A stretch of 64,000 nt of DNA. Origin: Giardia intestinalis. Its lineage: Eukaryota. Positions 5,502 to 57,043 of the stretch are shown in pieces. The stretch lies in NCBI GenBank assembly GCA_000002435.2, contig CM018793.1; one strand, given 5' to 3'. The stretch's first letter is position 1; every line of letters starts with the position of its first letter. The translations under genes and the position numbers were made by a program. Below the pieces are notes generated by a model, which was not told where the DNA came from, searched no databases, and saw only the letters and a program-made list of their open reading frames with translations.

Positions 5502-5583
5502 GACAGTTTGGCCGAGTGGTTAAGGCGATTGACTAGAAATCAATTGTGCTCCGCACGCATGGGTTCGAATCCCATAGCTGTCG
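5502..5583 (+). tRNA. tRNA-Ser (anticodon AGA), class II with a long variable arm
   Basis: I folded it by hand. Acceptor stem GACAGTT/AGCTGTC with one G-U pair. D-arm GCC-GAGTGGTTAA-GGC. Anticodon stem ATTGA/TCAAT with loop CTAGAAA, so U33-AGA-A37. Variable arm of 14 nt, GTGC-TCC-GCAC. T-arm ATGGG-TTCGAAT-CCCAT. Discriminator G. Confidence 0.85.
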
Positions 5584-13382: not shown

Positions 13383-13439
13383 AACTTCTACCTATTGTAA
13401 ATTTATGACTGTTAGATCTTGCTTGTTCACTTAAATTCA

Positions 13440-15656
13440 ATGACTACAAATCCCGTTGTAACTAGCCTCCTGTTAACTATCAACGAGATATCCCAACGCC
13501 AGGACACAACAATGCGTTTTGTTGAGCGGATAACGAAGCAGCTAGGTCATTTAAAAGGCGTAGTAGAATCCAGTCAGGGCCCGTTCCCAGGCTCCAAGAT
13601 GACAAAAGAGGAGTTAGCTACATCGTTGGGAGAGATACTAAAATACATAGAAGCTAATTTATTAGAGACTAACGATGTTCGTGAGCTGCTTTCAGGCTTG
13701 GAGGAGACACTTAATGGAATTGGTTCATCGTCAGACAAAGCCCTATTGAAAACCAAGCTGAGCCTAGGTCTTTCTGATTGCTACCTTATAATGGAGGGAC
13801 TTCTTGCAGCGAAAGACATAGGGCAATACATCCTATTAAATACTGACAAAGAAACTAAGCAAGACACGCCTTCAGAATTAGATACCGATAAGCAAGATGA
13901 TGAGCTTTCCATTCACGTTGATATATTATCAGAGAGCCTCGCCGATGAAGCGTCCTTATTGACAGTGGGAGAAAAGCTACCTGACCTTGAACGACGAGTC
14001 AAATTCGATCACGATAACGGGTCCTCTCTCAGTAGCCTTCCTGAATCAACTGTGCTGACTAGTTTGACTAGCGTCTGCCCTGCTGGATCACCTAATTCTG
14101 CGAAGAGTGCTTCAAAAACATCTATACAAGCAAAATTAGAAGAGTTTCTAGCAATTAGAGCTAGTGCAAAACAGAAGAAGCCCGAACTTGTCACCAAGCT
14201 TCCTCCAGCTGTGCCCCAACAACATGGAAAGAACCCCCCGATCTCATCTCTCAACCTAAGCGTGACCAGTGTGGATTCCAATGCAAATGATAGCCTGATA
14301 ACAGAGCCAGCTCCCTTGGCCGTTAGTGCCAGTGTGCTAGACCCCACGGAGCCACAGAATGGCCGCCAAAACATCGCACCAATACAATCTCTCAAAACCC
14401 TGGAATCTGTCTCAGAACTAGAACAGCGAAACCTGGAGAAGAAACATAACCCTATGACTAACCCACAGCAAGCATTGATAAAGTCTAATCGAAGTAATAA
14501 AAGTTGCACTGGGACTAGTACACGCTCTGGAAGTACTAACAGGACCCCCTTAAGAGCCATAAATACACCTCACCAGAGCAGCCAACCAGCCCAGACTGCA
14601 GTAAGACCTAGCTCTGTTAAGAAGTCTAGACCTATAGTGTTATTGGACAATGTTTCTTTGAGCATGGCGACTTCACCGCAACAGGTTCAAGCCACGGAGC
14701 TTACAGGCCATCCTGTGAAGAATTATTCGGGTAAAATATCCAAGCGGACTCCGTGCTCGATGCCTGCCACGCCGACAAAGTTTATATCTCCTAAGCAGCC
14801 TCAAGCGAAGTCATACTATAGTACCCCTACCTCCACAACACCAACCTCAGTACAGGTGGGGCGTTTACCCTCGCCACCCAAGCTATCATCTCGTTCTCCA
14901 TCCTCTGGTTCCCCAGCAACGGCCTCTTCGCAGGCTCGGCTAGTTATTAAAAACATGGAGGAGCAGGCTTTGAAACAGGACGCTATAATAAAGGGTTTGG
15001 CTACAGAGCTACAATCTATGAAACGGAAGGTCGAGGACATGCAGACTGATTATAGGCAGCAGGAAGAGGAAGTTAAGCAATTACTCTTAGAGTCTTCCAA
15101 GGTCCAGAATGAGTACGAAGAAAAAATCCGTAAACTCAAAGATGAGCTCGCTGAGCAAAGAGATCTAGCAATTTATTGGAGAGAAAAGGCACAGCAATGG
15201 GAGGAGATGAATCAGGCTTTAAGCCACCAGATTGCAATGTTTAAATACAACAAAGATGATTCCATTATACCCGTTTCACATGGGGACACCGATGGTGAGA
15301 ATTCAGAAGGTGCCAGCTCAATTGCAGGTACATATGCACACAAAAGCAGAGAGCCTACACACTCTACGTCCATAATTCAGCAACCCAGCAAAATACAGAG
15401 TAAGCCAGACTACACTACCTTATCTGATGAGAAGTACAACAGGCTAGAAACAGACTATCTTAATGGACGCCTAGGAAACTATTACAGCCTCAATAGAGAA
15501 AGATTTTCACAGAAGACCTTATCTGTGATAGATCTATACAAGATTCTTGGTAACTATGATCGTCAAATTGCAGAGCTGATGCATTCAAACAAAGATTTAG
15601 AGGAAAAGTTGGATGTATATCAGGGTCTGTTTAGGGCTATTTCAGGGGCCGATTGA
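13440..15656 (+). CDS. Hypothetical Ser/Thr/Pro-rich protein with a C-terminal coiled coil (about 738 aa)
   Basis: The track start at 13419 is a TTG. The first ATG is at 13440 (MTTNPVV...), preceded by cttaaattca. The C-terminal coiled coil includes LQSMKRKVEDMQTDYRQQEEEVKQLLLE. Confidence 0.5.
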   Translation: MTTNPVVTSLLLTINEISQRQDTTMRFVERITKQLGHLKGVVESSQGPFPGSKMTKEELATSLGEILKYIEANLLETNDVRELLSGLEETLNGIGSSSDKALLKTKLSLGLSDCYLIMEGLLAAKDIGQYILLNTDKETKQDTPSELDTDKQDDELSIHVDILSESLADEASLLTVGEKLPDLERRVKFDHDNGSSLSSLPESTVLTSLTSVCPAGSPNSAKSASKTSIQAKLEEFLAIRASAKQKKPELVTKLPPAVPQQHGKNPPISSLNLSVTSVDSNANDSLITEPAPLAVSASVLDPTEPQNGRQNIAPIQSLKTLESVSELEQRNLEKKHNPMTNPQQALIKSNRSNKSCTGTSTRSGSTNRTPLRAINTPHQSSQPAQTAVRPSSVKKSRPIVLLDNVSLSMATSPQQVQATELTGHPVKNYSGKISKRTPCSMPATPTKFISPKQPQAKSYYSTPTSTTPTSVQVGRLPSPPKLSSRSPSSGSPATASSQARLVIKNMEEQALKQDAIIKGLATELQSMKRKVEDMQTDYRQQEEEVKQLLLESSKVQNEYEEKIRKLKDELAEQRDLAIYWREKAQQWEEMNQALSHQIAMFKYNKDDSIIPVSHGDTDGENSEGASSIAGTYAHKSREPTHSTSIIQQPSKIQSKPDYTTLSDEKYNRLETDYLNGRLGNYYSLNRERFSQKTLSVIDLYKILGNYDRQIAELMHSNKDLEEKLDVYQGLFRAISGAD

Positions 15657-15744
15657 TATCTTTTGAGAGTCCTGATGTGATGCGGATAAGAAAGTTGTTT
15701 TATCTGCTTCGGAAGAGAAGAGATAAAAACTTCACATCACAAGC

Positions 15745-17754
15745 ATGCGCCGAACATTTGTGCTCGTTGCGTCATCCGATATCCTTTGCGTCAGTTTCTG
15801 TCTTTCTCGTATCACCGGTGCTCCTCTTACAGCAACAACATTTCGCGCTCCCTCTGACGAAACTGCTGATCTTCGTCGACAACTGTTTTCTGGCCTACTC
15901 TCCGTCAGAAACAGGGTGGTCTTGCCCTGGATAGATATTATTAGTGAAGATAATGCGTCTTTTTGCGTGCTGACTAAGATGTCGACTGGTATGCCTCTGC
16001 CGATTTTTTGGAAAGTATATAGGGCAGTTGAGGGCTCTGATGCTGCTTTCAGAGTGATTCGTTTATTAGTAACATTTATACTCACTGTAGAAAATCAAGT
16101 ACAATCTTCACTTATAAAAATATTGGTGTACAGCTTAGCCAATTGTCACGACTTAACTGTTAACGGAGATGGGTTCCTCGTGCTGTATATAGATGGGCCC
16201 AAGCTAATTAGTCGTTTGCCACTCGTTATGAGACCAGTACTTGGTCTTCAACAGCAGTTTCTCTGGCGTATAATGACTCACCTTCTCAAAGACCCAGATA
16301 GAGTTGGTGATACTACAGTAGAGCCTCCATCACTGTCTCAATTACACGGTTGGCCGGATAAGGTACTTTACTTTTTGAGGGATTTGTGTGCATATCCGGT
16401 TGTTTTGTCTGTAGGTGTTGCTGATACTTGCTCTTATCTAAGCAGCTATCCCAACCCTTGGCACATCCCCTTGCACACACTGCGGGCAAACCCGGTTTCA
16501 AGCTCCCTCAACTCGGTACAATCGTCCGAGCTCTTTGGGGAATCTATGGAGCTGCTCAACACATACATCGATATGAACTCTCGGTTGCGACAGCCTGAGT
16601 TCAAGGGCCTCCTACTTACAGCCGAGATATACCCGTGGAAGATTCCCGTTGGTGCTCTGGCCCGAGCATATATGTACGGCAGGTCAACTCTTGCTGTGGA
16701 GGAAGCATTCTCCTTAGCCATGCAGCGAGGCAACTACGGCATCCTGGCTGGCATGGCACACCTTTGTAAGTCAACCAACATAAAGCTGACATCTCTTATG
16801 CTGGAAGTTCTGCGTCAAGCAGATCCTGATGTCTCATGCTGCAGCTTCGTCTTATCTGAAAAAGATAAAGAAACCTTATGGCTGAACTCCACACATGGGT
16901 ATTCTGCACTTATGTTTGCTGTATTGACACGCAATAAGACAATAGTCGAATGCATTTTGCCCCATGAAGTGACTATGACGAATGCCTGCGGACACAGTGC
17001 CCTCGCCATTGCCCGGCAGCTTAGGCTAGAGCCTATATGTGCTGTGCTTACGCGCTACCTTCCTACTTATGATGCATTTGGAAACACCTATTTACACACG
17101 GTTGTTCAAGAGAACGGCGAGAATACAGATGCAATTAAGCAACATATATTTCTTTCTCAGATACAAAATAGCGCAGGAGAGTACGCCATCATGATAGCCT
17201 ACCGGCTAAAGAAATATAAGGTCCTTTCTGTCCTTTCGCAGTCTGAAGGCCGCCTCGTCCATCCAGTGACTATTTGTCATAACAATCTATCTATCTCTAA
17301 ACTCTCTGTACTTCAGCTTGCTGCTCTTGATGGGGATGGTGCCGCTGTGCGTGCTGTTAAGCAATACGGTCACTCTGTTGTCACCGATCATGGCTACACT
17401 GCATTGATGTTTGCCGCCGAAAGAGGACACAGTGACATAGTTCGTGAGCTGGCTCCATTTGAGGCACGACAGACAAATGACGCGGGAAAGACAGCCTTGT
17501 TGTTGGCTATATGTGCCGGACACTTGGATGTGGTTAAGGTCTTGGCGGACTATGAGACAAGGCTAACAGATAGCACAGGGTGGTGCCCTCTTGAACAGGC
17601 AGTGAGACGTAGCAGAATAGGCATGGTCGAAGTGCTTGCACCATATGAGGCCAAGATCTTTGGGGCAAGGGCCATCGATGCAGTTGACTCATCAGCATTT
17701 ATTGCACAGGCTAACCGCCGTTCTATTAAGGAGATCATCAGAAAATACATGTGA
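15745..17754 (+). CDS. Ankyrin-repeat protein (Giardia 'protein 21.1' type), 669 aa
   Basis: True ATG at 15745 with an AT-rich upstream region. The C-terminal half carries tandem ANK repeats (GYSALMFAVLTRNKTIVECIL, GHSALAIARQL, GYTALMFAAERGHSDIVREL, GKTALLLAICAGHLDVVKVL). Confidence 0.75.
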   Translation: MRRTFVLVASSDILCVSFCLSRITGAPLTATTFRAPSDETADLRRQLFSGLLSVRNRVVLPWIDIISEDNASFCVLTKMSTGMPLPIFWKVYRAVEGSDAAFRVIRLLVTFILTVENQVQSSLIKILVYSLANCHDLTVNGDGFLVLYIDGPKLISRLPLVMRPVLGLQQQFLWRIMTHLLKDPDRVGDTTVEPPSLSQLHGWPDKVLYFLRDLCAYPVVLSVGVADTCSYLSSYPNPWHIPLHTLRANPVSSSLNSVQSSELFGESMELLNTYIDMNSRLRQPEFKGLLLTAEIYPWKIPVGALARAYMYGRSTLAVEEAFSLAMQRGNYGILAGMAHLCKSTNIKLTSLMLEVLRQADPDVSCCSFVLSEKDKETLWLNSTHGYSALMFAVLTRNKTIVECILPHEVTMTNACGHSALAIARQLRLEPICAVLTRYLPTYDAFGNTYLHTVVQENGENTDAIKQHIFLSQIQNSAGEYAIMIAYRLKKYKVLSVLSQSEGRLVHPVTICHNNLSISKLSVLQLAALDGDGAAVRAVKQYGHSVVTDHGYTALMFAAERGHSDIVRELAPFEARQTNDAGKTALLLAICAGHLDVVKVLADYETRLTDSTGWCPLEQAVRRSRIGMVEVLAPYEAKIFGARAIDAVDSSAFIAQANRRSIKEIIRKYM

Positions 17755-17799
17755 TGCCTTTAGACGAGAAAAGCAATCCTACCTTAATTTACAAGCGTT

Positions 17800-18306
17800 C
17801 TACTTGGAGTCCTCATTGAACAGAGTAACGTACTGTGATAAAACTTCTTCTAAATTATCATCTCCAAAGATGGCAAATGGCTTCAAGACAATGCATTGAA
17901 AAAGCCGACCCATGGCACACACAGGTCTTGATATTTCATAAGGCGTTATGGTTTCCATGTAACTATCTAAGGTAGCTCCGCAGGTCATTATTACGCGCCA
18001 CTTCTTCTGTGCAAGTGGCTTCTGAGCACCCCCTGCCCATTCTATAGTGAACACACAGTCCAGAAATGCCTTCATAGATGCTGGACAATTATACCAATAC
18101 ACTGGGTACTGGAAGAAGATGGCGTCTGCCTTTTCGATGCGTCGCTGCTCCTCGGCTATCTGCTCTTTGGATAAAACGAGGGCGGGATATAGCCCATCGA
18201 GATGCCGTATCTTTATATTCTTCTGGTCGCGCACCTTGTCTAGGAGGGTCTTATTTACTTTGGAAGCCGGCTCCAACGGGTGTGAATAGTAAAGAAGAAT
18301 CCTCAT
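17800..18306 (-). CDS. Flavodoxin-like NAD(P)H:quinone oxidoreductase (KefG/KefF / general-stress-protein-14 type), copy 1
   Basis: MRILLYYSHP, then LYPAL...EQRRIEKADAIFFQYPVYWYNCPASMKAFLDCVF, then KKWRVIMTCGA. This aligns motif-for-motif with bacterial KefG ([44 protein letters not shown]). ATG at 18304-18306. Confidence 0.8.
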   Translation of the reverse strand: MRILLYYSHPLEPASKVNKTLLDKVRDQKNIKIRHLDGLYPALVLSKEQIAEEQRRIEKADAIFFQYPVYWYNCPASMKAFLDCVFTIEWAGGAQKPLAQKKWRVIMTCGATLDSYMETITPYEISRPVCAMGRLFQCIVLKPFAIFGDDNLEEVLSQYVTLFNEDSK

Positions 18307-18361
18307 TTTTATGTACCTTCTCCAATCCAAGGTTGTGCCTTTGAAACATGCAAACCGGAAT

Positions 18362-18856
18362 TTACTTAAAGAGCTTCAAATAGTTATCCACTAGTGTGTC
18401 CTTGTCAGTGTCAGCAAAAACGATGAAAGGCGGGAGCGGATCGCACTTGCAGAACTTGAAGCTTTGGTTAAAAGGCTTAGCTAAGTCGCTTGCAGAAAGT
18501 TCTCCGCCATAGCCTTCCATCTTCCCTCCGCACGTGCAGATGACACGGAACTTCTTGCCCGCGATCACGGCCTTGGAGCCGAAGGCCCACCCGTACGTCA
18601 GCACGCTATCCATAAAGACCTTAAGAGAAGGCGGTGATGAATACCAATGCACGGGGAACTGGAAGAAAACTGCGTCCGCCTTCTCTATGATCCTTTGCTC
18701 CTCGCTGACCTGCTCAGGGGTCATATGCAGGCTCGGGTAGAGCTCATCCAGCCAGCGGACTTTTACGTTTCCGAGCTTCTTGGCCTCCTCAACGAGGGGT
18801 GCGTTGACGACGCTCTTCAACTCCGCAGGGTGGGAGTAGTAGAGGACGATACGCAT
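18362..18856 (-). CDS. Flavodoxin-like NAD(P)H:quinone oxidoreductase (KefG/KefF type), copy 2, a tandem paralog
   Basis: MRIVLYYSHPAE...AVFFQFPVHWYSSPPSLKVFMDSVL...KKFRVICTCGG. About 55% identical to copy 1. ATG at 18854-18856. Confidence 0.8.
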   Translation of the reverse strand: MRIVLYYSHPAELKSVVNAPLVEEAKKLGNVKVRWLDELYPSLHMTPEQVSEEQRIIEKADAVFFQFPVHWYSSPPSLKVFMDSVLTYGWAFGSKAVIAGKKFRVICTCGGKMEGYGGELSASDLAKPFNQSFKFCKCDPLPPFIVFADTDKDTLVDNYLKLFK

Positions 18857-18904
18857 TTTTAAACGGCTGAATAATATCAACCACAATAATTTGAGGCAAA
18901 TTGT

Positions 18905-19678
18905 TTATAGCCATATGAGGCAAACGATAAGAATGACCCCAAAGACAATCGCTAATGTCAAATATTTGCAGTCATTGTGACGGCAGAGAAGGCGAGAGGC
19001 TGCCTTGGCACGGCCCGTCGCAACCCTTGCATCTGCAGTTCGAGCATCAATATCCGCACCCAGGTCATCAATCAGTCGAGCATCTTCGTCTAGCCCAGCA
19101 CGGAGTAAAATCTGGTGGTGTTTGAGCTTTGTAACAGGGTCTTGCAGATTCGCTGCCATGGAAACCAGCTCCTGCATCTTAGAAGCCTGGTCGTGCGCCC
19201 TTTCCCATGCATCTATGGCTGCCATTCCCCCTCCCATCTTCTTCGCACTCATGGAATTGATAGCTTTTACAACTGTCTGCTTGAGCGCCACATATTCTTC
19301 AATATACCCATTGAGGATCTTTGTCTGCTGCATGGTGTTCGCATTCTCTAACGACCCTCCCGCCTTCATGTCCTGGTGACGAGCCTTTTCGCTGGAGTGA
19401 ACCCCGGTGCCGCCACCTGTATCCGCGCCTTCGTCGGTGCCAAGGCCAGCATCAGCGTCATCCTCTAGGCTCGGACTCACGCCTTGCAGATGTGTCTTCG
19501 TCTCCAAAAGACGCATTAGGGTCGTCTCGATCTCCCGCCGGATAATGGTGCCCTGGCTCTCCAGCCCCGGGTCGAACCCTACAGACCGAGAAACGGCCTG
19601 TGTAAATCCTTGCACACGTGATTCCAGTGCAGGCAGCTCCCTGCTAATCTTATAGTCGATCTCAATGAAACTGTACAT
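18905..19678 (-). CDS. Tail-anchored coiled-coil membrane protein, possibly a syntaxin/SNARE-like protein (257 aa)
   Basis: True ATG at 19676-19678. A single C-terminal TM segment (YLTLAIVFGVILIVCLIWL*) follows a predicted coiled coil (ASKMQELVSMAANLQDPVTKLKHHQ...), which is the architecture of Q-SNAREs. No strict SNARE signature was verified. Confidence 0.45.
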   Translation of the reverse strand: MYSFIEIDYKISRELPALESRVQGFTQAVSRSVGFDPGLESQGTIIRREIETTLMRLLETKTHLQGVSPSLEDDADAGLGTDEGADTGGGTGVHSSEKARHQDMKAGGSLENANTMQQTKILNGYIEEYVALKQTVVKAINSMSAKKMGGGMAAIDAWERAHDQASKMQELVSMAANLQDPVTKLKHHQILLRAGLDEDARLIDDLGADIDARTADARVATGRAKAASRLLCRHNDCKYLTLAIVFGVILIVCLIWL

Positions 19679-19720: not shown

Positions 19721-22087
19721 TCACTCGCGCACGTCTAGAAGCACCAGGTAGGAGAAAAGAAAGACCAAGAGAGACATTATGATCTTAGACATGTGGAAGG
19801 GAGACCGAAAAAGGAACAACACCCATGCTGAATAGAACAGGCCCATGCTTATGGCATAGGCACACACGTTGCGTTGCGATATACAGAAGTTGAAAATGTG
19901 AGAGTGGAAAATACGACGGCATACACAGACAGAGCAAAAGTAGCAATACGTCCCCTGCTCAGGTTTCAAACAGGTTGAGCACAGATGGCTAGCCTCTGGT
20001 AATGCACTATCAGGTTTCACGGAAACCAAAACTCCGGCTAAATGCTGTCTATTTTCCTTGTCGCTGGAGAGGTCAAAAGGTGGCCGAGGTTCTACTGTAT
20101 AGAGGCAGTTGGCAGATCGGGTGAGCGACCTCGACACCAGAACATCACAGATCCTATAGACGGGTTCGGCGCTCATGATAGCCGAACAGGATGCAGAAGT
20201 GTCCGGAGTGTGTGTGCCTGTGCCTGTGCCTGTACCTGTACTTGTACCTGCATCAGTGTGCTCTTCTATCATCCTCCGGCTATTCCACATGTCATCGGAG
20301 AACCTTGAACTTTGCATGAAATCGTTCTTCGCTAGCGATATTGATGCCGTGCGGTCCAACCGCAAAGCATAGGTAGTAATAAAGAACAATGCTGAGAAGA
20401 CAACAGATACTAAAGAGCCTATTTGCAAGGTAAAATTATAGAGCCTGTGCTCAAGCAAGGTGCGTAGAGATGGTAGTAAGAAAAGCATGTAATTCTGCAC
20501 CCGTTTTGAAGTATGTGTCTGTATCGGCAGCTGAGTAGATTGATCTAAAAATAACTCGATCAGAATGCTGATTCCCAATCCAAGAAGCGATGCGGCATAC
20601 AGCAATATACCTGTATATCTAGATAGGCAGTCCAGGACTATGCCATACGTTGAACAGGTATTAGTGAGTATCTTGCAAGCAAGGGAATTTGGACACACGC
20701 AAGACAGATCAGAATTCATACAACACCCCTGCTGCATGAACCTCCGAGCTGACCTCTTATCAGATGCTGTGTAAACCATCTGCATAGAGCCGCAAATTTT
20801 CGCTTTGCAGAACTTCTCCGCTGCCCGAAAGAGCATTTTCTTTTCTGCGATTGACCTAGATATTATGAAATTGTAAATGTTGTGATACTGTTCTGTGTAA
20901 AATAAAAGCTCAATTACGCTACATCCCCTTGCAAAGGCATGTAGCAGAGGTAACTGCATATGTGGCTCATCATCTATTTTTAGGGGAAGCATTGTTACCA
21001 ACAGGTCGTCGGCTATAGAATGCTTTATCAAAAGGGACACTATGTCTCTGTTACTATAGAGTATGGCAAGGGCGAGGGCATTCGTCTGCAGGTTTCCAAA
21101 CCTGTGCTGCAGCTGCTTGCGGAGTGCAGTTTCTCCACCGATCTCCTTAATTAAATGGACTATGGCCGATACACAGTCAATAGAGTTAGACGAAATAGCA
21201 CAGCTTAAAAGATTGATGTTCGTGTCTTTTGTGAGTACGTCAATCATCCCCTTGTCATACTGCAGCAGCCAGAGGACACAGGAAAGGCGACCATTGAGGG
21301 CGGCAGCATGTATAGGAAGCATGCCGCAGGTGTCATAAGCATAGCAAAGAGGTGTCTCCGTGTCCTCGCCAGTCGTTAATTTGGAGGACATTAGGTATGA
21401 AAGACTATCAAAGTTGACCGCAGAGAGTGTGTGCATATCATTCGTTATGATAAGGTCGCGAAAGCTAACCCCTCCTCCAAACTGTGAATAGACTGAGAGA
21501 ATATACTTAATAATAAATGTGTTACCACGAATAATAGCTAACTGGAGGAGCCTTGTAACGTCCACAACATTCATTATGCTAAGTACGCAGTGGGCCTGCA
21601 ATGTTTGACTAAACAAGCTTGTAGCGAATTCATCTATGTAGAAGTTTGCTGAAATCACCATGGGCTCAGCAGAATGTCTATCAGTCAGTGCCGCCAACTC
21701 AATGGGCAGGAGCTGAAGAGAATTCGAGGACCTCGTCTCAAGCAGGAGTCGGAGTGAATCTGGACACGATTTTCTTAGGTCAAGTAAGCTGTATGTTGTG
21801 ATCTCTCCTAACACTATCAGATGCGCAATGTTGAATCCCCGCAGCGTAAAAGAACCGATATCATCTATTGATGCATTCTGAATACTAGCAAATCCGTTCT
21901 CGTTCAGACGCTGTACAGCTCCGGTGGGATTGTCCGGTTTAGTATCCTCGAACTTACGGCAATCTAAAACAGCTCTGGCCAGGGTAGAGTCGACATTATC
22001 CTCGAGCTCTTCGAGGGTCGAGGGAGCGACTACACAAAGATCATTTTGAGTCCTAATCCCCATGCGCCGGATTAGCTCAAAAGGCAT
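19721..22087 (-). CDS. Ankyrin-repeat multi-pass membrane protein with a degenerate DHHC-type cysteine-rich domain (possible inactive palmitoyltransferase-like), about 788 aa
   Basis: ANK repeats (GMLPIHAAALNGRLSCVLWLL, NALALAILYSNRDIVSLLIKH). These are followed by TM helices and CSTCLKPEQGTYCYFCSVCVCRRIFHSHIFNFCISQRNVC, which matches DHHC-CRD spacing (compare CSTCLIRKP...C..C....DHHC) but has HSHI in place of DHHC. I propose the start at ATG 22085-22087 (MPFELIRR...), preceded by AT-rich sequence. The longest ORF, to 22405, would overlap the divergent phosphatase gene by 230 bp. Confidence 0.5.
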   Translation of the reverse strand: MPFELIRRMGIRTQNDLCVVAPSTLEELEDNVDSTLARAVLDCRKFEDTKPDNPTGAVQRLNENGFASIQNASIDDIGSFTLRGFNIAHLIVLGEITTYSLLDLRKSCPDSLRLLLETRSSNSLQLLPIELAALTDRHSAEPMVISANFYIDEFATSLFSQTLQAHCVLSIMNVVDVTRLLQLAIIRGNTFIIKYILSVYSQFGGGVSFRDLIITNDMHTLSAVNFDSLSYLMSSKLTTGEDTETPLCYAYDTCGMLPIHAAALNGRLSCVLWLLQYDKGMIDVLTKDTNINLLSCAISSNSIDCVSAIVHLIKEIGGETALRKQLQHRFGNLQTNALALAILYSNRDIVSLLIKHSIADDLLVTMLPLKIDDEPHMQLPLLHAFARGCSVIELLFYTEQYHNIYNFIISRSIAEKKMLFRAAEKFCKAKICGSMQMVYTASDKRSARRFMQQGCCMNSDLSCVCPNSLACKILTNTCSTYGIVLDCLSRYTGILLYAASLLGLGISILIELFLDQSTQLPIQTHTSKRVQNYMLFLLPSLRTLLEHRLYNFTLQIGSLVSVVFSALFFITTYALRLDRTASISLAKNDFMQSSRFSDDMWNSRRMIEEHTDAGTSTGTGTGTGTHTPDTSASCSAIMSAEPVYRICDVLVSRSLTRSANCLYTVEPRPPFDLSSDKENRQHLAGVLVSVKPDSALPEASHLCSTCLKPEQGTYCYFCSVCVCRRIFHSHIFNFCISQRNVCAYAISMGLFYSAWVLFLFRSPFHMSKIIMSLLVFLFSYLVLLDVRE
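20207..20250. repeat. Imperfect (CCTGTR)n hexanucleotide microsatellite inside a coding sequence, encoding a (GT)n dipeptide run
   Basis: gtgtgtgtgcctgtgcctgtgcctgtacctgtacttgtacctg. On the minus strand it encodes ...AGTSTGTGTGTGTHTPD. Confidence 0.7.
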
Positions 22088-22175
22088 TAATATTTTAGGG
22101 TGCCATAAAACAGAAACGGCCGCTTCAAAAAATCGGCACTGTAAAAAAAGCCGTTGGGCCGAAATTTGAGGAGCC

Positions 22176-23432
22176 ATGGGTATGACACATTCCTTCATCA
22201 CAGAGTGGGATAATACCCCCAAGACCAAGATGCGTTTTAGTCGGGAGGTAAGCTTTGCAGAACTCCAAAGGGTGACCAACTGTATGGCTAAGCACGAAAT
22301 TCCCAGCATTGAGGACTTTATATGGGTGCTTAAGGAAGCTGCTAAGGTTCTTTCCACTTTACCAAATAATGTCCACGTGATTCCTGAGCCTAATGACCGC
22401 CTCATCTTTGTTGGGGATTTGCACGGGTGCTTTGAGACATTGATACGTTTATTCCTTGGGTATCCGCAACAAAATATCCCCAGAACGGGCTTCCCAGGTG
22501 AGATAGTTGATGGCAGACGCCTTGTTTACTTTTTCAACGGAGACTTTGTTGACCGAGGAGGGTCTGGATATCAGATTGTCTTCCTCCTGGCGTACATGGC
22601 AATTGCCTGCCCTGGTTCGTGCTATCTAAATCGCGGAAATCACGAGTCCGAAATGTTCGGTCTTTCGACGCAGGGCATGCTTGGGAACAAGTTCATGTCG
22701 GAGATGGCTGGTAAATTTTCTGGAATGGACCCGGAGACGTACAGGCCAGCTATTGGCGAATTCTTTTGCGCCCTTCCCATTGCCCACACCATAGATCGCA
22801 ATATATTTATGGTGCACGGTGGGGTACCCCTGGGAGACGACCTCAGTAATGTTCCGCGAGCTGCTCCGCAATCGTATTTCAGCACCGGGTCGCCTGCCCC
22901 CATACCCAAGGGGCTCAAGCCATACAAGATAAGCAACCTGGACAACCTAACTCCCTCACGCCAAAAAACAACGAACTTTGAAGACAATCCTCGCAAACAA
23001 AATGAGCTCTGGCACTCCTTTGTCTGGAACTATGACCGTCTACCGTACAGCGCCGACTTCATGGAAGAGAATAATTTCAAGACTATGGTTCACTCACATA
23101 CGGCCACCCCGTTCCACCAGATAACGTCCTTCCTTCCGCTTGAGAAAACCTCGGGAGAAAAGTACTCCATCCAATCGGTCATTAAGAACCAGGAGATGTT
23201 CGATAGAATGAAGGCTTTCTTCGCGAGCCACCAACTAGCAAACAGCAGTAAGCTCTCCATCTTGGAAATCTTCTCTTCTCCCACTAATAACGGGACTGTG
23301 TACGCAGCCTGTGTTGACGCCGTCCCCGGGGAGCCAGGCCAACGCATCAACTACGACCCCTTCCAGTGGACTTACATCTTCTTGGGTAACGCATCAGAGT
23401 ATAACTTTATACAGCAAGGAACCACGTACTAG
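22176..23432 (+). CDS. Serine/threonine protein phosphatase, PPP family (calcineurin-like metallophosphoesterase), 418 aa with a C-terminal extension
   Basis: Motifs GDLHGCF, GDFVDRGGSG, NRGNHES and a later HGG are present. True ATG at 22176, preceded by ctgtaaaaaaagccgttgggccgaaatttgaggagcc. An AGTAAAC motif lies downstream, near 23489. Confidence 0.8.
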   Translation: MGMTHSFITEWDNTPKTKMRFSREVSFAELQRVTNCMAKHEIPSIEDFIWVLKEAAKVLSTLPNNVHVIPEPNDRLIFVGDLHGCFETLIRLFLGYPQQNIPRTGFPGEIVDGRRLVYFFNGDFVDRGGSGYQIVFLLAYMAIACPGSCYLNRGNHESEMFGLSTQGMLGNKFMSEMAGKFSGMDPETYRPAIGEFFCALPIAHTIDRNIFMVHGGVPLGDDLSNVPRAAPQSYFSTGSPAPIPKGLKPYKISNLDNLTPSRQKTTNFEDNPRKQNELWHSFVWNYDRLPYSADFMEENNFKTMVHSHTATPFHQITSFLPLEKTSGEKYSIQSVIKNQEMFDRMKAFFASHQLANSSKLSILEIFSSPTNNGTVYAACVDAVPGEPGQRINYDPFQWTYIFLGNASEYNFIQQGTTY

Positions 23433-41623: not shown

Positions 41624-41776
41624 CGCTGTTTAATAAATGAGTGTGGCCGGGCCCCTGCGCCGGGCTGGCGCTCGGGGGCGTCGGCGGGCTCTGGGAGGGC
41701 CGACTCTGCCCCGGGCCCCGGAGCCTTAAGTGCCCTCCGCGGGCAAGGACTGCCCGAAATTATTCGGGGAAGGCGT

Positions 41777-42172
41777 TTACAGGCGGTCCCCCTGGTCCTC
41801 CTCCAGGACGACGGCGGAGACGCCCCCGAACTGCTGGCAGAACGCGAGCATGTGGTAGAGGAGGGGGATCTCGTTGTTGATCGCGTCGGGCGACAGGCCG
41901 AGGGTCCGGATCAGGTACTCCCGGCTGACGGGGAGCGTCGGGATCCCCGCCTCGACCTCGAGGGTGCCGGCGGTGGAGTGGAGGCCCATGAAGCGGAAGA
42001 ACTCCGTGATGAGCTCCAGGATCACGTACGTCTCGCCCTCGGGCTGCGGGGGCGGGCTGGCCTTGTGGCCCTCGAGCGCGCGGAGGACGGACTCGCGGAC
42101 CTTCGCCTGCAGGACCGCGAGCTCGCCCCGCTGCTTCATGTTCTGGAGGATGATGCTCTTGATCTCGTCCAT
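41777..42172 (-). CDS. FOP/TONNEAU1 N-terminal dimerisation-domain protein (LisH-like; centrosomal FGFR1OP/CEP43-type N-terminus), about 131 aa
   Basis: From MDEIKSIILQNMKQRGELAVLQAKVRESVLRALEG...YVILELITEFFRFMGL...REYLIRTLGL...IPLLYHMLAFCQQ. Compare FOP: LRDLLVQTLENSGVLNRIKAELRAAVFLALEE...LVASLVAEFLQFF...RENLARDLGI...PLLLEVIRRCQQ. ATG at 42170-42172, preceded by gggataaaaataaagaccc. Confidence 0.55.
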   Translation of the reverse strand: MDEIKSIILQNMKQRGELAVLQAKVRESVLRALEGHKASPPPQPEGETYVILELITEFFRFMGLHSTAGTLEVEAGIPTLPVSREYLIRTLGLSPDAINNEIPLLYHMLAFCQQFGGVSAVVLEEDQGDRL

Positions 42173-45453: not shown

Positions 45454-45543
45454 AGCCATTACTCTGTCCCGACGAGCCGATCCCGCCTGCCACTCGTCGC
45501 CCGTGCAGCACTGTCCCTCCGGGCACACGACAAGGCGCCTCGT

Positions 45544-47691
45544 GTGCGACCAGGCCAGCGGGCTCCCCCCTGGGGCAGCCCTCGGAGTGGGAGTCTCAGA
45601 GAGGAGGCCGCCGGGGCACCCCCACCCGCTGCGCGCAATCCGGTCCACACCACAGCCTCTCTACTGATACCCCTGTTCGTGGTGAGCGCGCTTGCAGTAA
45701 CCTGCCAGACCGGCAAGTGCGAGACGGTCGGATCAGCCGAGATTTGCACCCAGTGCAGGGCCGGGGGCGTCCCGGTCGACGGCTTCTGCTGGCCCCCCGG
45801 CTCCCCCCAGGCCGCGGCAGCCGGGTGCACCGAGGAAGACGGGGCTACCCTCGACAAGACGGCAACCACCTGCGGGAAGTGCGGCGACGGGTACTTCCTC
45901 TTCATGGGAGGGTGCTACAAGGTAGGACAAGATCCTGGCAGTGAGATATGCACAACAGCCAGTGATGGAGTGTGTACTACTTGTAAGACAGATAACGGCC
46001 TGTTCAAGAACCCGGCTACAGCACCGAAGCCTGGTAGTGAGTGCATCCTGTGCTCTGATATCAAGGGAGCAGATGGATATACGGGAGTAGAGAACTGCGC
46101 ACAGTGTACCAAGTCAGACAGTAACAAGGGGGCTGCCACGTGTACAGAATGCCAAGATGGATATTATAAAGATGCTAAAGGCGCATGTGTACAATGCCAG
46201 GGGAACTGCGCCACTTGTGAGACATCGGCGACCCAGTGTACCTCTTGTAAAGCGGGCTTCTATCTGAAGGACGGCAATAGCTGTGTGGCAGAAGGAGAAT
46301 GCACAAACACCGTTTATCCTGACCCAGAGTCGGGGAAGTGCAAGGCATGTAGTACAATAACTGATTGCACAGAATGCTCCTTCGACAAGGCCACGGGGAA
46401 GCCTCAGTGCACAGCCTGCGGTAGTCAGAAGACCCCCAGGACGACCCTTGATGGGACCTCGACCTGCGTCGATAAAACGCTTGACGGGTGCAAGGGCGCT
46501 GACGGGGCCTTATTTATGAAGGACGATACCACATGCGCCCTTTGCGGCGATGCGTCCCCTGGCGCTGGCGCAAACGATAAGGGGATTGCCGGGTGTAAGA
46601 CATGTACTAAGCAGCAAAGTCAGAAACCAGAATGCACAAGTTGTTTGGATGGATACTTCTTTGAACAGTCATCAAAGACTTGTTCGGCTTGTGCCTCCAA
46701 CTGTGCCACCTGCACGTCAGCTGATGTGTCAACTTGTACTGAGTGCCTTCCTGGGTACTTCCTAAAAACCGAGGGTGAAACGAAGTGTGCTGCATGCGAC
46801 AGTACACCAGATGGTGGCCGCGAAGGGTGCAGTCTATGTTCTAGCAACGGTGGATTTAAGTGCACTGAATGTAAGCCTAACTATAAGAAGCAGTCCAATG
46901 GAGGAGCAGGGGATGACTATACGTGTACAAAGGTGTGTGAAGACCCCACTGCTTGTGGGGGGACAGCTGGCTCTTGTGATGCCATAGTGATCGGTGCTGA
47001 TGGAAAGGAGCTTCACTATTGCTCATACTGTGGGGAGAGTACTAAGGTACCAATTGATGGCATCTGTGCTACTGATAAGAAAGGTAATACTTGTAACAGT
47101 CATACATGTACACAGTGTGCTCAAGGGTACTTCTTATACATGAATGGCTGTTACAAGGTTGGTCAAGAACCAGGTAGTCATATGTGCAAGACAGCAGGTA
47201 ATACTGGGATATGCACAGAAGCGGCCAACAATAGATACTTCGTAGTCCCAGAGGCAACCAATGCTCAGCAGTCTGTACTAGCATGTGGTAACCCATTAGG
47301 CACACTAATAGGTACTCAAGACAATGCTAAGGCATACGTGGGGGTCGAGGGCTGCTCCCAGTGTACAGCCCCAGTAGCTCTGACTGAGGCTGGTATGGCT
47401 GCCGCTACATGCACCTCCTGTGACAGTGATAAGAAGCCCAACAAGGATGGCACCGGGTGTGTGCTGTGCTCTGTGGGTGATTGCAAGAGCTGTGTGGTGG
47501 ATGATGTGTGTGGGGAGTGTGTTGATGGGTACAGTCTAGACAGCAGTGGGACCTCCTGTGTGTCTATGAGTACCAACAGGAGCGGGCTCTCCACGGGGGC
47601 CATCGCGGGGATCTCCGTCGCTGTGGTCGTCGTCGTGGGGGGCCTCGTGGGCTTCCTCTGCTGGTGGTTCATATGTAGAGGGAAGGCATGA
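45544..47691 (+). CDS. Variant-specific surface protein (VSP), copy A, the most complete copy. It has no in-frame ATG before the signal-peptide-like segment, so it may be a pseudogene or a junction copy
   Basis: CxxC-rich ectodomain with GGCY motifs. It ends ...NRSGLSTGAIAGISVAVVVVVGGLVGFLCWWFICRGKA*. The signal-like segment TASLLIPLFVVSALAVTC (about 45649-45702) sits in an ORF that opens with GTG at 45544 inside the GC-rich block. The first in-frame ATG comes only at FLFMGGCYK. AGTGAAT lies 8 nt after the stop. Confidence 0.6.
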   Translation: MRPGQRAPPWGSPRSGSLREEAAGAPPPAARNPVHTTASLLIPLFVVSALAVTCQTGKCETVGSAEICTQCRAGGVPVDGFCWPPGSPQAAAAGCTEEDGATLDKTATTCGKCGDGYFLFMGGCYKVGQDPGSEICTTASDGVCTTCKTDNGLFKNPATAPKPGSECILCSDIKGADGYTGVENCAQCTKSDSNKGAATCTECQDGYYKDAKGACVQCQGNCATCETSATQCTSCKAGFYLKDGNSCVAEGECTNTVYPDPESGKCKACSTITDCTECSFDKATGKPQCTACGSQKTPRTTLDGTSTCVDKTLDGCKGADGALFMKDDTTCALCGDASPGAGANDKGIAGCKTCTKQQSQKPECTSCLDGYFFEQSSKTCSACASNCATCTSADVSTCTECLPGYFLKTEGETKCAACDSTPDGGREGCSLCSSNGGFKCTECKPNYKKQSNGGAGDDYTCTKVCEDPTACGGTAGSCDAIVIGADGKELHYCSYCGESTKVPIDGICATDKKGNTCNSHTCTQCAQGYFLYMNGCYKVGQEPGSHMCKTAGNTGICTEAANNRYFVVPEATNAQQSVLACGNPLGTLIGTQDNAKAYVGVEGCSQCTAPVALTEAGMAAATCTSCDSDKKPNKDGTGCVLCSVGDCKSCVVDDVCGECVDGYSLDSSGTSCVSMSTNRSGLSTGAIAGISVAVVVVVGGLVGFLCWWFICRGKA

Positions 47692-47698
47692 CTCAGGT

Positions 47699-47705
47699 AG
47701 TGAAT
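47699..47705 (+). promoter_or_regulatory. AGTGAAT polyadenylation-signal-like motif 8 nt after the VSP stop. It is repeated after every array unit that ends in CRGKA
   Basis: tga ctcaggt AGTGAAT gc. In D/G-type units the motif is preceded by a cttaggt variant. Confidence 0.5.
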
Positions 47706-47844
47706 GCTATACAATGTGTGATAGTGTGTGATAATGGGTGATAGAGGGTGATAGTGGAGTGAGATATGTACAAAGGCCAGTAATGGACTGTGCACTGCTT
47801 GTAAGACAGATAACAAGTACATATTCCAGAACAGGGCAGACAAG

Positions 47845-49488
47845 GTGACCCCTGGTAGTGAGTGCATCCTCTGTCATGATGCCACGGGAGCGAATGAGAA
47901 CAAAGGAGTGGCCAACTGCCTCAAGTGCACGGCACCTGGTGGCAATACAGGACCTGCCACGTGTACAGAGTGTCAAGCAGGGTTCGTTACGAAGGACAGT
48001 GCATGTGAGAAGTGCGGAGAGGGCTGCTCTGCCTGCTCAGAGAGTGATCCAAATCAATGCTCGGCATGCCTTGAGGGGAAGTATCTGAAGGGTAATGCAT
48101 GTGTAGGACCCACTGAATGTGGTGATGGTAAGTATGCAGATCCAACAACAGGCCAATGCAAGGCATGTGGAATACCTGACTGCGCCACCTGTGAGTACAA
48201 TGCAACTATTAGTCAACCACAGTGTAAGACCTGCAATAGCAATAAGATGGTGAAGACAGCGGCAGACGGGACGACCACTTGTGTCGATGATGGTGGATGT
48301 ACAAATGGCAATACGCACTTTGTTGAAGGTACTAGCCCAAAGCTTTGTGTCCCGTGCGGTGATACTACAAATGGTGGGATTCTAGGTTGTAGTACTTGCT
48401 CCTCTAAAACTACATGTACAAAGTGCCTCGACGGATATTACGATAATGATGATAGTCAAGATACAGCTACGTGTGTCGCTTGTGGTGGACAAAATTGTGA
48501 GACATGTGCTAAGGCTACGAGTGATAAATGCACGACCTGTAAGCCTGGATTCTTCTTGAAGGATAGCTCCTCTGGTGAGTGCATCTCATGTAGTGACACA
48601 GCAAATGGTGGTCGCGAAGGCTGCAGTGTCTGCTCGAATGATAGTGGATTCAAGTGCACTGACTGTAAGCCTAACTATAAGAAGCAGCTTAATGGAGGAG
48701 CAGATGATGACTATACATGTGTGAAGACCTGTGAGGATGACACTGCTTGTGGTGGTACCTCTGGTGCTTGCGATGCCATAGTGATCAATGAGAATGGAAA
48801 GGAGCTTCACTACTGTTCATACTGTGGGGATAACAGTAAGTATCCTATAGATGGAAAATGTACAAATGTCAATGCTGGAAATACAGGATGCACCAATAAT
48901 GTCTGCAAGTCTTGTACTGCAGGGTACTTCCTCTATATGGGAGGGTGTTATAAGATTGGTGCAGAACCAGGCAACCTCATGTGCAAGACCGCTGAAGGTG
49001 GTAAGTGCACTGCTGTTAATGCCAATAATAGGTACTTCGTAGTCCCAGAGGCACAGGCTACTGATCAGTCTGTGTTGGCATGTGGCAACCCCCTTGGCAC
49101 ACTAGTAGGCACTGATAGTACCTCTAAGGCATATGTGGGGGTAGATGGCTGCTCCCAGTGTACAGCCCCAGTAGCTCTGACTGAGGCTGGTATGGCTGCC
49201 GCTACATGCACCTCCTGTGACAGTGATAAGGTGCCCAACAAGGATGGCACCGGGTGTGTGCTGTGCTCTGTGGGTGATTGCAAGAGCTGTGTGGTGGATG
49301 ATGTGTGTGGGGAGTGTGTTGATGGGTACAGTCTAGACAGCAGTGGGACCTCCTGTGTGTCTATGAGTACCAACAGGAGCGGGCTCTCCACGGGGGCCAT
49401 CGCGGGGATCTCCGTCGCTGTGGTCGTCGTCGTGGGGGGCCTCGTGGGCTTCCTCTGCTGGTGGTTCATATGTAGAGGGAAGGCATGA
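47845..49488 (+). CDS. VSP copy B, 5'-truncated (homology begins about 47767 at ...EICTKASNG...); intact TM+CRGKA tail; likely a pseudogene or silent donor
   Basis: There is no ATG or signal peptide. In-frame stops (tga, tag) lie immediately upstream of the homology start. The C-terminus ...CWWFICRGKA* is followed by an AGTGAAT motif. Confidence 0.55.
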   Translation: MTPGSECILCHDATGANENKGVANCLKCTAPGGNTGPATCTECQAGFVTKDSACEKCGEGCSACSESDPNQCSACLEGKYLKGNACVGPTECGDGKYADPTTGQCKACGIPDCATCEYNATISQPQCKTCNSNKMVKTAADGTTTCVDDGGCTNGNTHFVEGTSPKLCVPCGDTTNGGILGCSTCSSKTTCTKCLDGYYDNDDSQDTATCVACGGQNCETCAKATSDKCTTCKPGFFLKDSSSGECISCSDTANGGREGCSVCSNDSGFKCTDCKPNYKKQLNGGADDDYTCVKTCEDDTACGGTSGACDAIVINENGKELHYCSYCGDNSKYPIDGKCTNVNAGNTGCTNNVCKSCTAGYFLYMGGCYKIGAEPGNLMCKTAEGGKCTAVNANNRYFVVPEAQATDQSVLACGNPLGTLVGTDSTSKAYVGVDGCSQCTAPVALTEAGMAAATCTSCDSDKVPNKDGTGCVLCSVGDCKSCVVDDVCGECVDGYSLDSSGTSCVSMSTNRSGLSTGAIAGISVAVVVVVGGLVGFLCWWFICRGKA

Positions 49489-49510
49489 CTCAGGTAGTGA
49501 ATGCTATACA

Positions 49511-49560
49511 ATGTGTGATAATGGGTAATAGAGGGTGATAGTGTGATAGTGGAGTGTGAT
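49511..49560 (+). repeat. Degenerate (G)TGATAG(TG) short-repeat spacer between a VSP stop/poly(A) motif and the next truncated VSP body. It recurs in every inter-unit spacer
   Basis: atgtgtgataatgggtaatagagggtgatagtgtgatagtggagtgtgat. Variants of it occur at about 47710-47765, 51395-51460, 53265-53320, 55155-55210, 57050-57115 and 58920-58965. Confidence 0.7.
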
Positions 49561-51379
49561 ATGTACAAAGGCCAGTAATGGACTGTGCACTGCTTGTAAG
49601 ACAGATAACAAGTACATATTCCAGAACAGGGCAGACAAGGTGACTCCTGGTGGGGAGTGCATCTTGTGCTCTGATATCAAGGGAGCGAATGGATATACGG
49701 GAGTGGCCAACTGTCTCAAGTGTACGGCACCAGGGAATGCAGGACCTGCCACGTGTAATACCTGTCAAGAGGGGTACTTCCTAAACAACAAGCTTTGTAA
49801 GCCATGCGAGGGGAACTGTGCCACCTGTGAGACATCGGCGACCCAGTGCACATCGTGTCCAGAGGGGAAGTACCTCAATGGGAATCAATGTACTGATAGC
49901 TGTGGTAATGATAAGTATGCTGATCCAGAGTCTGGAACGTGCATGGCATGTAGTACAATAACTGATTGCACGGCATGCAAGTACAATGCGACTGTCAGTA
50001 AGCCCCAGTGCACTAACTGTGGCAGTAAGAAGGTGAAGACGGCCATCGATGGCACCACAACGTGCGTTGATGTGAGCTCTGGATGCCAGGATGCTGATCA
50101 CTTCAAGGCAGATGGTGATGCTGCGTGTGTCTTGTGCAGCGATACCAGCGGAGATAATGAGAACACAAATAAGGGACTGGAGGGCTGTAGTGCGTGCACA
50201 AAACCTAATAACAACCAACCACCCGCTTGTACCGGATGCTTACCCGGATATTACGATTCTGCGCCCGGCACCTTCAAGTGTAAGGCCTGTGCTCCCAACT
50301 GTGCCACCTGCACTCAAATTGGAGACGATAAGTGCTTGACCTGTAAGGAGGGGTTCTTCATGAAAGTCAGTGGCCCCGGTGAGTGCGTCCCTTGTAGTGA
50401 TACAGCTAAGGATGGCATCGATGGATGTGCAACGTGCACCTTCTCTAGCTCGTTGACCTGCAACTCCTGTAAGGTGAACTACAAGCAGAGCGGTACCCCT
50501 TCAACTGGGGTCACATGCACCAGGACTTGTGAAGATGATACGGCCTGCGGGGGTACCTCTGGTGCCTGCGATGCCATGATAATTGATGATAAGGGCACCA
50601 CAAAGCACTACTGTTCATACTGTGGGGATAGTTCACAAGCTCCTATAGATGGACTATGCACTAATAACAAAGAAAGTAATACTTGTACTAGTCATACATG
50701 TACATCATGTGCTGCTAACTACTTCCTCTATATGGGTGGCTGTTATAGCACTCAGAAGGCTCCTGGCAACTACATGTGCAAGACCGCAGGTAACAATGGG
50801 ATATGCACAGAAGCGGCCAACAATAGGTACTTCGTAGTCCCAGAAGCAACCAATGCTCAACAGTCTGTCCTGGCATGTGGTAACCCCCTTGGCACACTGA
50901 CAGGCACTGGTGATACTGCTAAGGCATACGTTGGGGTGGATGGCTGCTCCCAGTGCACAGCCCCAGCAGCTCCATCTGATGGTGGTATGACCCCCGCTGT
51001 GTGCACCTCTTGTGACAATAGTAAGAAGCCCAACCTGGCTGGGAGCGGGTGCTTCCCATGTGCCGTTGTTGGATGCTCGCACTGTGATATGGACAACAAG
51101 TGCTCCGCCTGCACAGAGGGGGGCAAGAGACCCAACAAGGAAGGGACAGCATGCTTTGAATGTAACGTGGAGGGGTGCGCTTATTGTAGTGGTGCTAATA
51201 AGTGTGAAGAGTGCAGCGATGGGTTCAAATTAGAGGGTGACAAGTGCGTGTCTTCTGGCACCAACAGGAGCGGGCTGTCTACTGGCGCCATCGCGGGCAT
51301 CTCCGTCGCTGTGGTCGTCGTCGTGGGGGGCCTCGTGGGCTTCCTCTGCTGGTGGTTCCTCTGCAGGGGGAAGGCGTGA
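49556..51379 (+). CDS. VSP copy C (607-aa type), 5'-truncated, starting at ICTKASNGLCTACKTDN...; tail ...CWWFLCRGKA*
   Basis: GTG-initiated ORF only. The nearest ATG (atgtac) is out of frame. Identical in protein to copy F. Confidence 0.55.
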   Translation: MICTKASNGLCTACKTDNKYIFQNRADKVTPGGECILCSDIKGANGYTGVANCLKCTAPGNAGPATCNTCQEGYFLNNKLCKPCEGNCATCETSATQCTSCPEGKYLNGNQCTDSCGNDKYADPESGTCMACSTITDCTACKYNATVSKPQCTNCGSKKVKTAIDGTTTCVDVSSGCQDADHFKADGDAACVLCSDTSGDNENTNKGLEGCSACTKPNNNQPPACTGCLPGYYDSAPGTFKCKACAPNCATCTQIGDDKCLTCKEGFFMKVSGPGECVPCSDTAKDGIDGCATCTFSSSLTCNSCKVNYKQSGTPSTGVTCTRTCEDDTACGGTSGACDAMIIDDKGTTKHYCSYCGDSSQAPIDGLCTNNKESNTCTSHTCTSCAANYFLYMGGCYSTQKAPGNYMCKTAGNNGICTEAANNRYFVVPEATNAQQSVLACGNPLGTLTGTGDTAKAYVGVDGCSQCTAPAAPSDGGMTPAVCTSCDNSKKPNLAGSGCFPCAVVGCSHCDMDNKCSACTEGGKRPNKEGTACFECNVEGCAYCSGANKCEECSDGFKLEGDKCVSSGTNRSGLSTGAIAGISVAVVVVVGGLVGFLCWWFLCRGKA

Positions 51380-51387
51380 CTTAGGTA

Positions 51388-53253: not shown

Positions 53254-53320
53254 CTCAGGTAGTGAATGCTATACAATGTGTGATAATGGGTAATAGAGGG
53301 TGATAGTGTGATAGTGGAGT

Positions 53321-55144: not shown

Positions 55145-55211
55145 CTCAGGTAGTGAATGCTATACAATGTGTGATAATGGGTAATAGAGGGTGATAGTGT
55201 GATAGTGGAGT

Positions 55212-57035: not shown

Positions 57036-57043
57036 CTTAGGTA

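Follow-up and report, generated by a model that had tools for sequence, protein, structure and literature searches.

The two adjacent genes analysed here are GL50803_17150 and GL50803_17151 of Giardia duodenalis WB (hereafter 17150 and 17151), and the best explanation of the pair, to which we give a probability of about 0.93, is that it encodes flavodoxin-fold flavoproteins derived from bacteria, tandemly duplicated in the Giardia lineage and acting by a quinone/nitro reductase mechanism. The genes lie in a stretch of 64,000 nt, the whole of which was analysed and is referred to as the window. The arrangement, the fold, the bacterial origin, the enzymology of 17150 and the association with drug resistance are already known for these exact genes; what is added here beyond the literature is the dN/dS and GC3 values, the structural model of 17151 and the indel comparison.

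The assignment of the locus was based on primers, transcripts and paralog identity. The primers 17150_F and 17150_R, with which ORF 17150 was cloned (Müller 2021, PMC7912051), match exactly at 18836-18856 on the minus strand and at 18362-18388 on the plus strand, respectively; the pair spans 495 bp here, and adding the CACC tag brings this to the 499 bp published for the product. Positions 13411-19302 of the window are 100% identical over 5,892 nt to WB1B RNA-Seq contigs, and the exact 17150 protein is present on the Logan assemblies of runs SRR2642204 and SRR2642205, which are RNA-Seq runs of G. duodenalis WB1B trophozoites (PMC5224939, table). The closest named relatives of this protein are ‘NAD(P)H:menadione oxidoreductase [Giardia duodenalis]’ and ‘NADPH oxidoreductase [Giardia muris]’. 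BLASTP gave 44% identity and 67% positives between the two proteins (E = 4e-55, ungapped over 163 residues), and the codon-aligned nucleotides are 52% identical; the ‘about 55%’ stated in a first-pass annotation of this DNA was its sole factual error. The published values for 17150 and 17151 are 43% (Ansell 2017, PMC5355454) and 44.2% (Müller 2021, PMC7912051). The primer matches, the WB transcript identity and the fit of the paralog identity together establish which genes these are.

Table 1. The gene pair and its local signals, in window coordinates
Feature	Position	Strand	Description
17150 (GL50803_17150)	18362-18856	minus	164 aa + TAA stop; ORF with Flavodoxin_2 match
17151 (GL50803_17151)	17800-18306	minus	168 aa + TAG stop; diverged paralog, putative quinone reductase
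Spacer, 17150 stop to 17151 start	18307-18361	minus	55 bp
AGTAAA overlapping the 17150 stop codon	18361-18366	minus	Putative Giardia-type polyadenylation signal; kept in assemblage B
CATAAAAATG	18304-18313	minus	A-rich initiator context and start codon of 17151; kept in assemblages A and B
TTTAAAAATG	18854-18863	minus	A-rich initiator context and start codon of 17150; the AAAATGCGTAT part kept in assemblage B

Both open reading frames fall inside 17800-18886 and are arranged head to tail with 17150 upstream, as the first-pass annotation had described, including the distance between them. The first ATG was chosen as the start of each gene, while the program-made list of open reading frames begins at upstream TTG codons. 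In both genes AAAA stands directly before this ATG. The A-rich start contexts of 17150 and 17151 are of the kind known from Giardia promoters and may have promoter function. The polyadenylation consensus of Giardia is AGTRAA, and the AGTAAA at the 17150 stop is, judged by its sequence, a candidate poly(A) signal. Assemblage B (GS) has the corresponding gene pair, in the same orientation and with the same flanking genes, separated by 54 bp. In an alignment of the WB and GS spacers, only AAGTAAA around the 17150 stop and CATAAAAATG at the 17151 start were conserved, the middle having diverged; that only the ends are kept would be compatible with 3′ and 5′ signals of the Giardia type belonging to each gene separately, as these motifs would suggest. 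A tblastn search of the 64,000-nt window found no third copy of this type.

Both proteins match the Pfam family Flavodoxin_2 (PF02525; gathering threshold 27 bits), 17150 with 109.2 bits over profile positions 1-180 of 198 and 17151 with 92.1 bits over positions 1-194. When a profile of the Giardia family was compared with PDB sequences, the closest structures were 5lva (a bacterial NAD(P)H-FMN oxidoreductase, 106 bits), 3f2v (general stress protein 14, GSP14, 99 bits) and 3eyw (E. coli KefF, 97 bits), which bears out the earlier placement of the pair among flavodoxin-fold NAD(P)H oxidoreductases. The AlphaFold2 model of 17151 has a pLDDT of 93.8 and a pTM of 0.90, and Foldseek superposed it on 5lva, 3f2v and KefF with TM scores of 0.82-0.89. 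Residues H9, S15, N18, Q66, P68, W71, P75, T108 and G110, which we take to be flavin-binding positions of this fold, are invariant or nearly so in both paralogs. The closest relatives outside the metamonads, at 35-40% identity, are YwrO/GSP14 and related bacterial oxidoreductases (3f2v, 5lva); these two structures match the Giardia proteins in length class and fold (TM 0.88-0.89), and 3f2v was crystallised with FMN. Relative to YwrO/GSP14, the Giardia proteins have a 3-residue insertion, two shortened loops and eukaryote-type gene contexts. The statement that they lack eukaryote-specific extensions was correct, both being slightly shorter than their bacterial relatives of 170-200 aa.

Several observations suggest that the two genes arose from each other. 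They are reciprocally nearest, with 43-49% identity against no more than 38% to anything else, and they share three indels, namely the 3-residue insertion, which precedes the EEQ motif, and the two loop shortenings, all of which are absent from the Trepomonas and bacterial sequences. The local duplication proposed in the first-pass annotation thus agrees with these data and had been put forward before: Ansell 2017 (PMC5355454) reported that 17150 and 17151 are adjacent on chromosome 5 and took their 43% identity to suggest gene duplication. In Kimura-distance neighbour-joining (NJ) trees, the 17150 clade including G. muris had 82-85% bootstrap support and the 17151 clade 100%, and the clade uniting the two had only 32-44%. 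This low value arises because a long-branched Trepomonas-like pair (P0108/P0168) joins 17151 in 62 of 150 replicates (about 41%). Given that 17151 is also the nearest non-self relative of the Trepomonas proteins (34-38%), it could be argued that there were two independent acquisitions, or a duplication before the diplomonads, such that 17151 would be the Trepomonas ortholog and 17150 of separate origin. We consider this improbable, since the Giardia paralogs are closer to each other than to any other sequence, stand about 55 bp apart in one orientation in assemblages A and B, and have in common indels that Trepomonas lacks, and since the Trepomonas-17151 identity exceeds the Trepomonas-bacteria identity by 1-5 points, a margin of the size usual for long-branch noise.

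The sequence comparisons rather point to a single acquisition, after which the gene was duplicated within the Giardia lineage, probably before G. muris branched off. The G. muris ortholog of 17150 has a different neighbourhood, where it adjoins a peroxiredoxin and a VSP gene, and it occurs twice, the identical copies lying in an inverted segmental duplication. No gene of the 17151 type was found beside this ortholog, and no G. muris protein of this type appeared in the protein searches. It appears that the duplication predates the G. muris split and that 17151 was then lost in G. muris, other metamonads also holding relatives. If this is so, uptake of the gene from bacteria would be older than the genus Giardia.

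To place the family more widely, we searched 1.84 billion cluster representatives with a profile, and this returned two Giardia clusters (288 and 178 bits) and then a continuum from 136 bits down. The top matches after Giardia that were looked up comprised one protein of the fornicate Dysnectes brevis, one of Campylobacter and two (P0016 and P0021) from run SRR31929897, where they lie on 30-kb contigs with eukaryote-type flanking genes (SepSecS, OST3/6, CBF and UDPGP). Among the 120 proteins listed, the named matches were Giardia, one protein of Trepomonas sp. PC1 and otherwise bacteria with 31-39% identity, most of them Bacillaceae and Paenibacillaceae and some of them Bacteroidota; no close animal, fungal or plant protein was among the matches listed. 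The Dysnectes protein is nearest to bacterial sequences (43-46%) and not to Giardia, which leaves the metamonad copies without a single clear clade, and no bacterial donor group was recovered with support in the Kimura-distance NJ trees. These sequence data, in which all named matches listed outside the metamonads are bacterial, support acquisition of the gene family from bacteria.

The lateral transfer suggested by the first-pass annotation is thereby upheld, the closest named relatives outside Giardia being bacterial, mostly Bacillales, together with Trepomonas and Dysnectes, and published work has reached the same view. A bacterial origin was also concluded by Müller 2021 (PMC7912051). In a tree-based survey, an ‘NADPH oxidoreductase’ of Giardia is scored as ‘acquired, Bacteria, bacterial matrix’, without an identifiable donor (Jiménez-González 2019, PMC6934886); we equate this entry with the 17150/17151 family because work on DT-diaphorase is cited there.

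Mammalian NQO1 and NQO2 share with the Giardia pair a flavodoxin-like core and two-electron quinone reduction, which raises the alternative that the genes were inherited vertically as reduced relatives of an ancestral eukaryotic NQO1/NQO2 (DT-diaphorase) family and are not bacterial imports. The human proteins are indeed detectable homologs (NQO2 59 bits, NQO1 48 bits; TM about 0.7-0.78 to the 17151 model), and family members do occur in Trepomonas, in Dysnectes and on the eukaryote-type contigs of SRR31929897. The human homologs are distant ones, however: both NQO1 (273 aa) and NQO2 (about 230 aa) exceed the Giardia proteins in length, with TM scores to the target of 0.45-0.6, and the bacterial structures reach roughly double their bit scores (97-106 bits) and can be superposed more closely (TM 0.82-0.89). 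Moreover, all named close matches outside the metamonads were bacterial among the matches listed, the Dysnectes protein groups nearest to bacteria with the metamonad copies lacking one clear clade, and the published trees (PMC6934886) record a ‘bacterial matrix’. Vertical inheritance is therefore very unlikely. For the transferred and duplicated pair that we favour, the history may be drawn as follows: a bacterial gene would have reached a diplomonad or Giardia ancestor; tandem duplication would have come before the split of the G. duodenalis assemblages and probably before that of G. muris; and each copy now carries a Giardia-style A-rich start context of its own, with codon bias and expression differing between the two. 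A third, recent copy is the DT-diaphorase gene GL50803_15004, elsewhere in the genome.

The first-pass annotation had called the pair ‘KefG/KefF-like’, and this stands as resemblance and falls as membership. The best NCBIfam models for both proteins are indeed KefF (NF002044; 114.2 bits for 17150 and 93.6 bits for 17151) and KefG (NF003430; 88.6 and 85.8 bits), and E. coli KefF, with which they share a quinone reductase fold, is among the best structural matches (TM 0.82-0.86 to the 17151 model). KefF-like structures were likewise predicted for 17150 and 17151 by Ansell 2017 (PMC5355454). However, the equivalog cutoffs are 210 bits for KefF and 240 bits for KefG, so that scores of 86-114 bits miss them by about half. 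That the proteins might nonetheless be true KefF/KefG, i.e. ancillary subunits gating a potassium efflux system of the KefC/KefB type, could draw on Ansell 2017 (PMC5355454), where a KefC-like fold is predicted for two Giardia proteins and one of these is co-regulated with 17150. In the same study, however, the KefF residues that contact KefC were found not to be conserved in the Giardia proteins, and purified 17150 works as a stand-alone reductase (PMC7912051). The six neighbouring ORFs (10.7-23.4 kb) include ankyrin proteins, a phosphoesterase (Metallophos), a weak match to DHHC, a borderline one to Rrf2 and two proteins without a Pfam hit; none has a KTN or cation-antiporter domain, operon linkage of the bacterial kind not necessarily being expected in a eukaryote. 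With scores at about half of the equivalog cutoffs or less and a KefC/KefB-type partner gene absent nearby, membership was rejected, and a true KefF/KefG function is very unlikely. The two proteins are KefF/KefG-like in fold and are not true KefF/KefG.

Recombinant 17150 is a flavoprotein with a flavin spectrum and about 0.7 flavin per protein; it strongly prefers NADPH and reduces menadione, with coenzyme Q and tetracycline reduced less well, as well as dinitrotoluene, 7-nitrocoumarin and metronidazole (Müller 2021, PMC7912051). The quinone/nitro reductase activity that the first-pass annotation had considered likely has thus been shown biochemically for 17150 (PMC7912051). According to Müller 2021 (PMC7912051), Bacillus subtilis YwrO reduces quinones with NADPH and also has nitroreductase activity. 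On the explanation favoured here, 17150 and 17151 are both small, single-domain, cytosolic flavodoxin-fold flavoproteins of the YwrO/general stress protein 14/KefF branch of Flavodoxin_2. In the proposed mechanism, NADPH would reduce the bound flavin, and the reduced flavin would hand its electrons on to a quinone such as menadione, a nitro compound or perhaps O2. For the paralog DT-diaphorase, O2 has been reported as an acceptor. Published enzymology has shown which acceptors 17150 uses, that it carries a flavin and that it prefers NADPH, while a ping-pong order of its steps would be expected from the enzyme family. For 17151, the mechanism is inferred wholly from the conserved motifs, the confident model and the strong purifying selection described below, and it may therefore be taken as predicted.

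DT-diaphorase/NAD(P)H:menadione oxidoreductase, GL50803_15004 (Sánchez et al. 2001 and Li and Wang 2006, as cited in PMC5355454 and PMC6934886), is the third paralog and is 86-87% identical to 17150 (PMC5355454, PMC7912051). Its fold and chemistry are as in 17150. It differs from the adjacent 17150/17151 pair in being at a distant locus outside the window, and from 17151 in being up-regulated in some resistant lines (PMC5355454, PMC8866875). The protein P0008 has the 15004-specific peptide SVVNAPLVEAAKK.

Comparison of assemblages A and B indicated that both members of the pair are under purifying selection of different strength. The dN/dS ratio was 0.10 for 17150 and about 0.014 for 17151, with dS saturated for 17151, and the proteins are 84% and 90% identical, respectively. 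These values suggest that 17151 is the more constrained copy and is not decaying. GC3 is 0.71 in 17150 and 0.51 in 17151, compared with 0.40-0.59 in eleven other genes of the window. GC-ending codons accompany high expression in Giardia. The higher GC3 of 17150 fits its reported expression, which is much above that of 17151 (Ansell 2017, PMC5355454). That the pair is bacterial contamination or an assembly artefact, or that 17151 is a decaying duplicate, is hardly credible at all: the protein type is bacterial and the 17151 protein has not been detected in proteomes (PMC7912051, PMC8866875), but the genes are flanked by ankyrin genes of Giardia in an order identical to that of assemblage B, the locus recurs with 100% identity in the WB RNA-Seq assemblies, both starts have a Giardia-type context, and the 17151 ORF is intact in assemblages A and B with the low dN/dS and the high pLDDT given above. 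Contamination and assembly artefact were ruled out by the synteny in assemblage B and the WB transcript identity, and a pseudogene by the dN/dS of 17151 and its confident structural model.

The first-pass annotation had also mentioned redox-activated drugs, a link that holds for both genes, since metronidazole is reduced by 17150 (PMC7912051) and the 17151 transcript is down in resistant lines (PMC5355454, PMC8866875). It was down in all three metronidazole-resistant lines of Ansell 2017 (PMC5355454), and Krakovka 2022 (PMC8866875) confirmed the decrease in all resistant lines. The abundance of this transcript is disputed, being low according to Ansell 2017 (PMC5355454) and ‘highly transcribed but poorly translated’ according to Krakovka 2022 (PMC8866875), and the protein was not detected by mass spectrometry in either of two studies (Müller 2021, PMC7912051; Krakovka 2022, PMC8866875). 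Taking together that 17151 is the more constrained copy, that its protein is unseen by mass spectrometry and that it is the only quinone reductase with a transcript that is down in every resistant line studied, 17151 may not be just a redundant spare. It is conceivable, though on balance doubtful, that 17151 is an enzyme of particular conditions or of low abundance, or that it forms a heterodimer with 17150 or 15004, and that it has a disproportionate role in nitro-drug activation. The two genes belong to the flavin reductases that are able to activate metronidazole and other nitro drugs and to handle quinones and oxygen; this set of enzymes matters for understanding treatment failure, an importance already recognised in the literature. 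As a separate observation, 17151 is both conserved and consistently down-regulated in resistant lines (PMC5355454, PMC8866875).

In Giardia muris, the P1-type gene (resembling GL50803_17150, the first member of the Flavodoxin_2 tandem pair) occurs twice, with identical sequence, within an inverted segmental duplication (L008 and L009; CM016925.1, ~825-855 kb). Each copy adjoins a peroxiredoxin gene and a VSP gene, no P2-type gene (resembling GL50803_17151, the second member) lies beside the copy at either locus, and the synteny is unlike that of G. duodenalis. Assemblage B carries a second P1-type gene, encoding P0005, which adjoins a VSP gene at a locus distant from the pair. In Kimura-distance NJ trees, P0005 clusters with the assemblage B ortholog of 17150 and not with the assemblage A sequences, a hint that, within each assemblage, 17150 and the copy corresponding to the third paralog, DT-diaphorase (GL50803_15004), arose by independent duplication or have undergone gene conversion with each other.

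Beyond Giardia, a eukaryote represented in the Logan data set SRR31929897 has two members of the family on separate 30-kb contigs, which are compact and apparently intron-poor. Both members share the 3-residue insertion of Giardia P1 and P2. One protein from this eukaryote, P0021, begins with MGCNAS, a possible N-myristoylation/palmitoylation signal, which would suggest that P0021 is a membrane-anchored version of the family. On a metagenomic contig, two Flavodoxin_2 genes are oriented divergently; the NJ trees place the product of one, P0029, close to the Giardia sequences.

Locations of family relatives and of other features in the window
Feature	Location	Strand	Remarks
P1-type gene (P0005), assemblage B	L012 6001-6495		AHHH01000187.1
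Family member, SRR31929897	L010 10001-10531		
Family member, SRR31929897	L011 10001-10525		
Flavodoxin_2 gene	L013 1343-1975	-	JGI 3300010163
Flavodoxin_2 gene	L013 2261-2806	+	JGI 3300010163
tRNA gene	window 5502-5583	+	Rfam RF00005, 61.4 bits
745-aa ORF	window 13419-15656	+	N-terminal borderline Rrf2 match
Ankyrin/DHHC-like ORF	window 19721-22405	-	894 aa from first ATG
Metallophos gene	window 22176-23432	+	divergent from ankyrin/DHHC-like ORF
GlsR24, Giardia H/ACA snoRNA	window 41640-41786	-	Rfam RF02487, 166.6 bits (cutoff 100)
VSP array, ~8 genes, head-to-tail	window 45500-60700	+	PF03302
VSP gene, 3' of array	window 61277-63778	+	PF03302

Within the window, the 745-aa ORF matches Rrf2, a bacterial winged-helix regulator domain, at the borderline (30.3 bits; cutoff 30), and assemblage B keeps the gene at the same position. 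It may represent another bacterial-type domain in a Giardia protein. Read from its first ATG, the ankyrin/DHHC-like ORF overlaps the start of the Metallophos gene by ~230 bp, and its homolog in assemblage B is called at 771-783 aa compared with 894 aa here; the real start is probably further downstream.

The snoRNA GlsR24 is located where GC content is high (55-63% across 40-46 kb), and the long ORFs of this region gave no Pfam match. The stretch bearing the VSP gene downstream of the array is 60-68% GC. In the array itself, the repeat unit is ~1.8-1.97 kb and the copies are 62-100% identical; there is a strong positive GC skew there because all VSP copies lie on the same strand.
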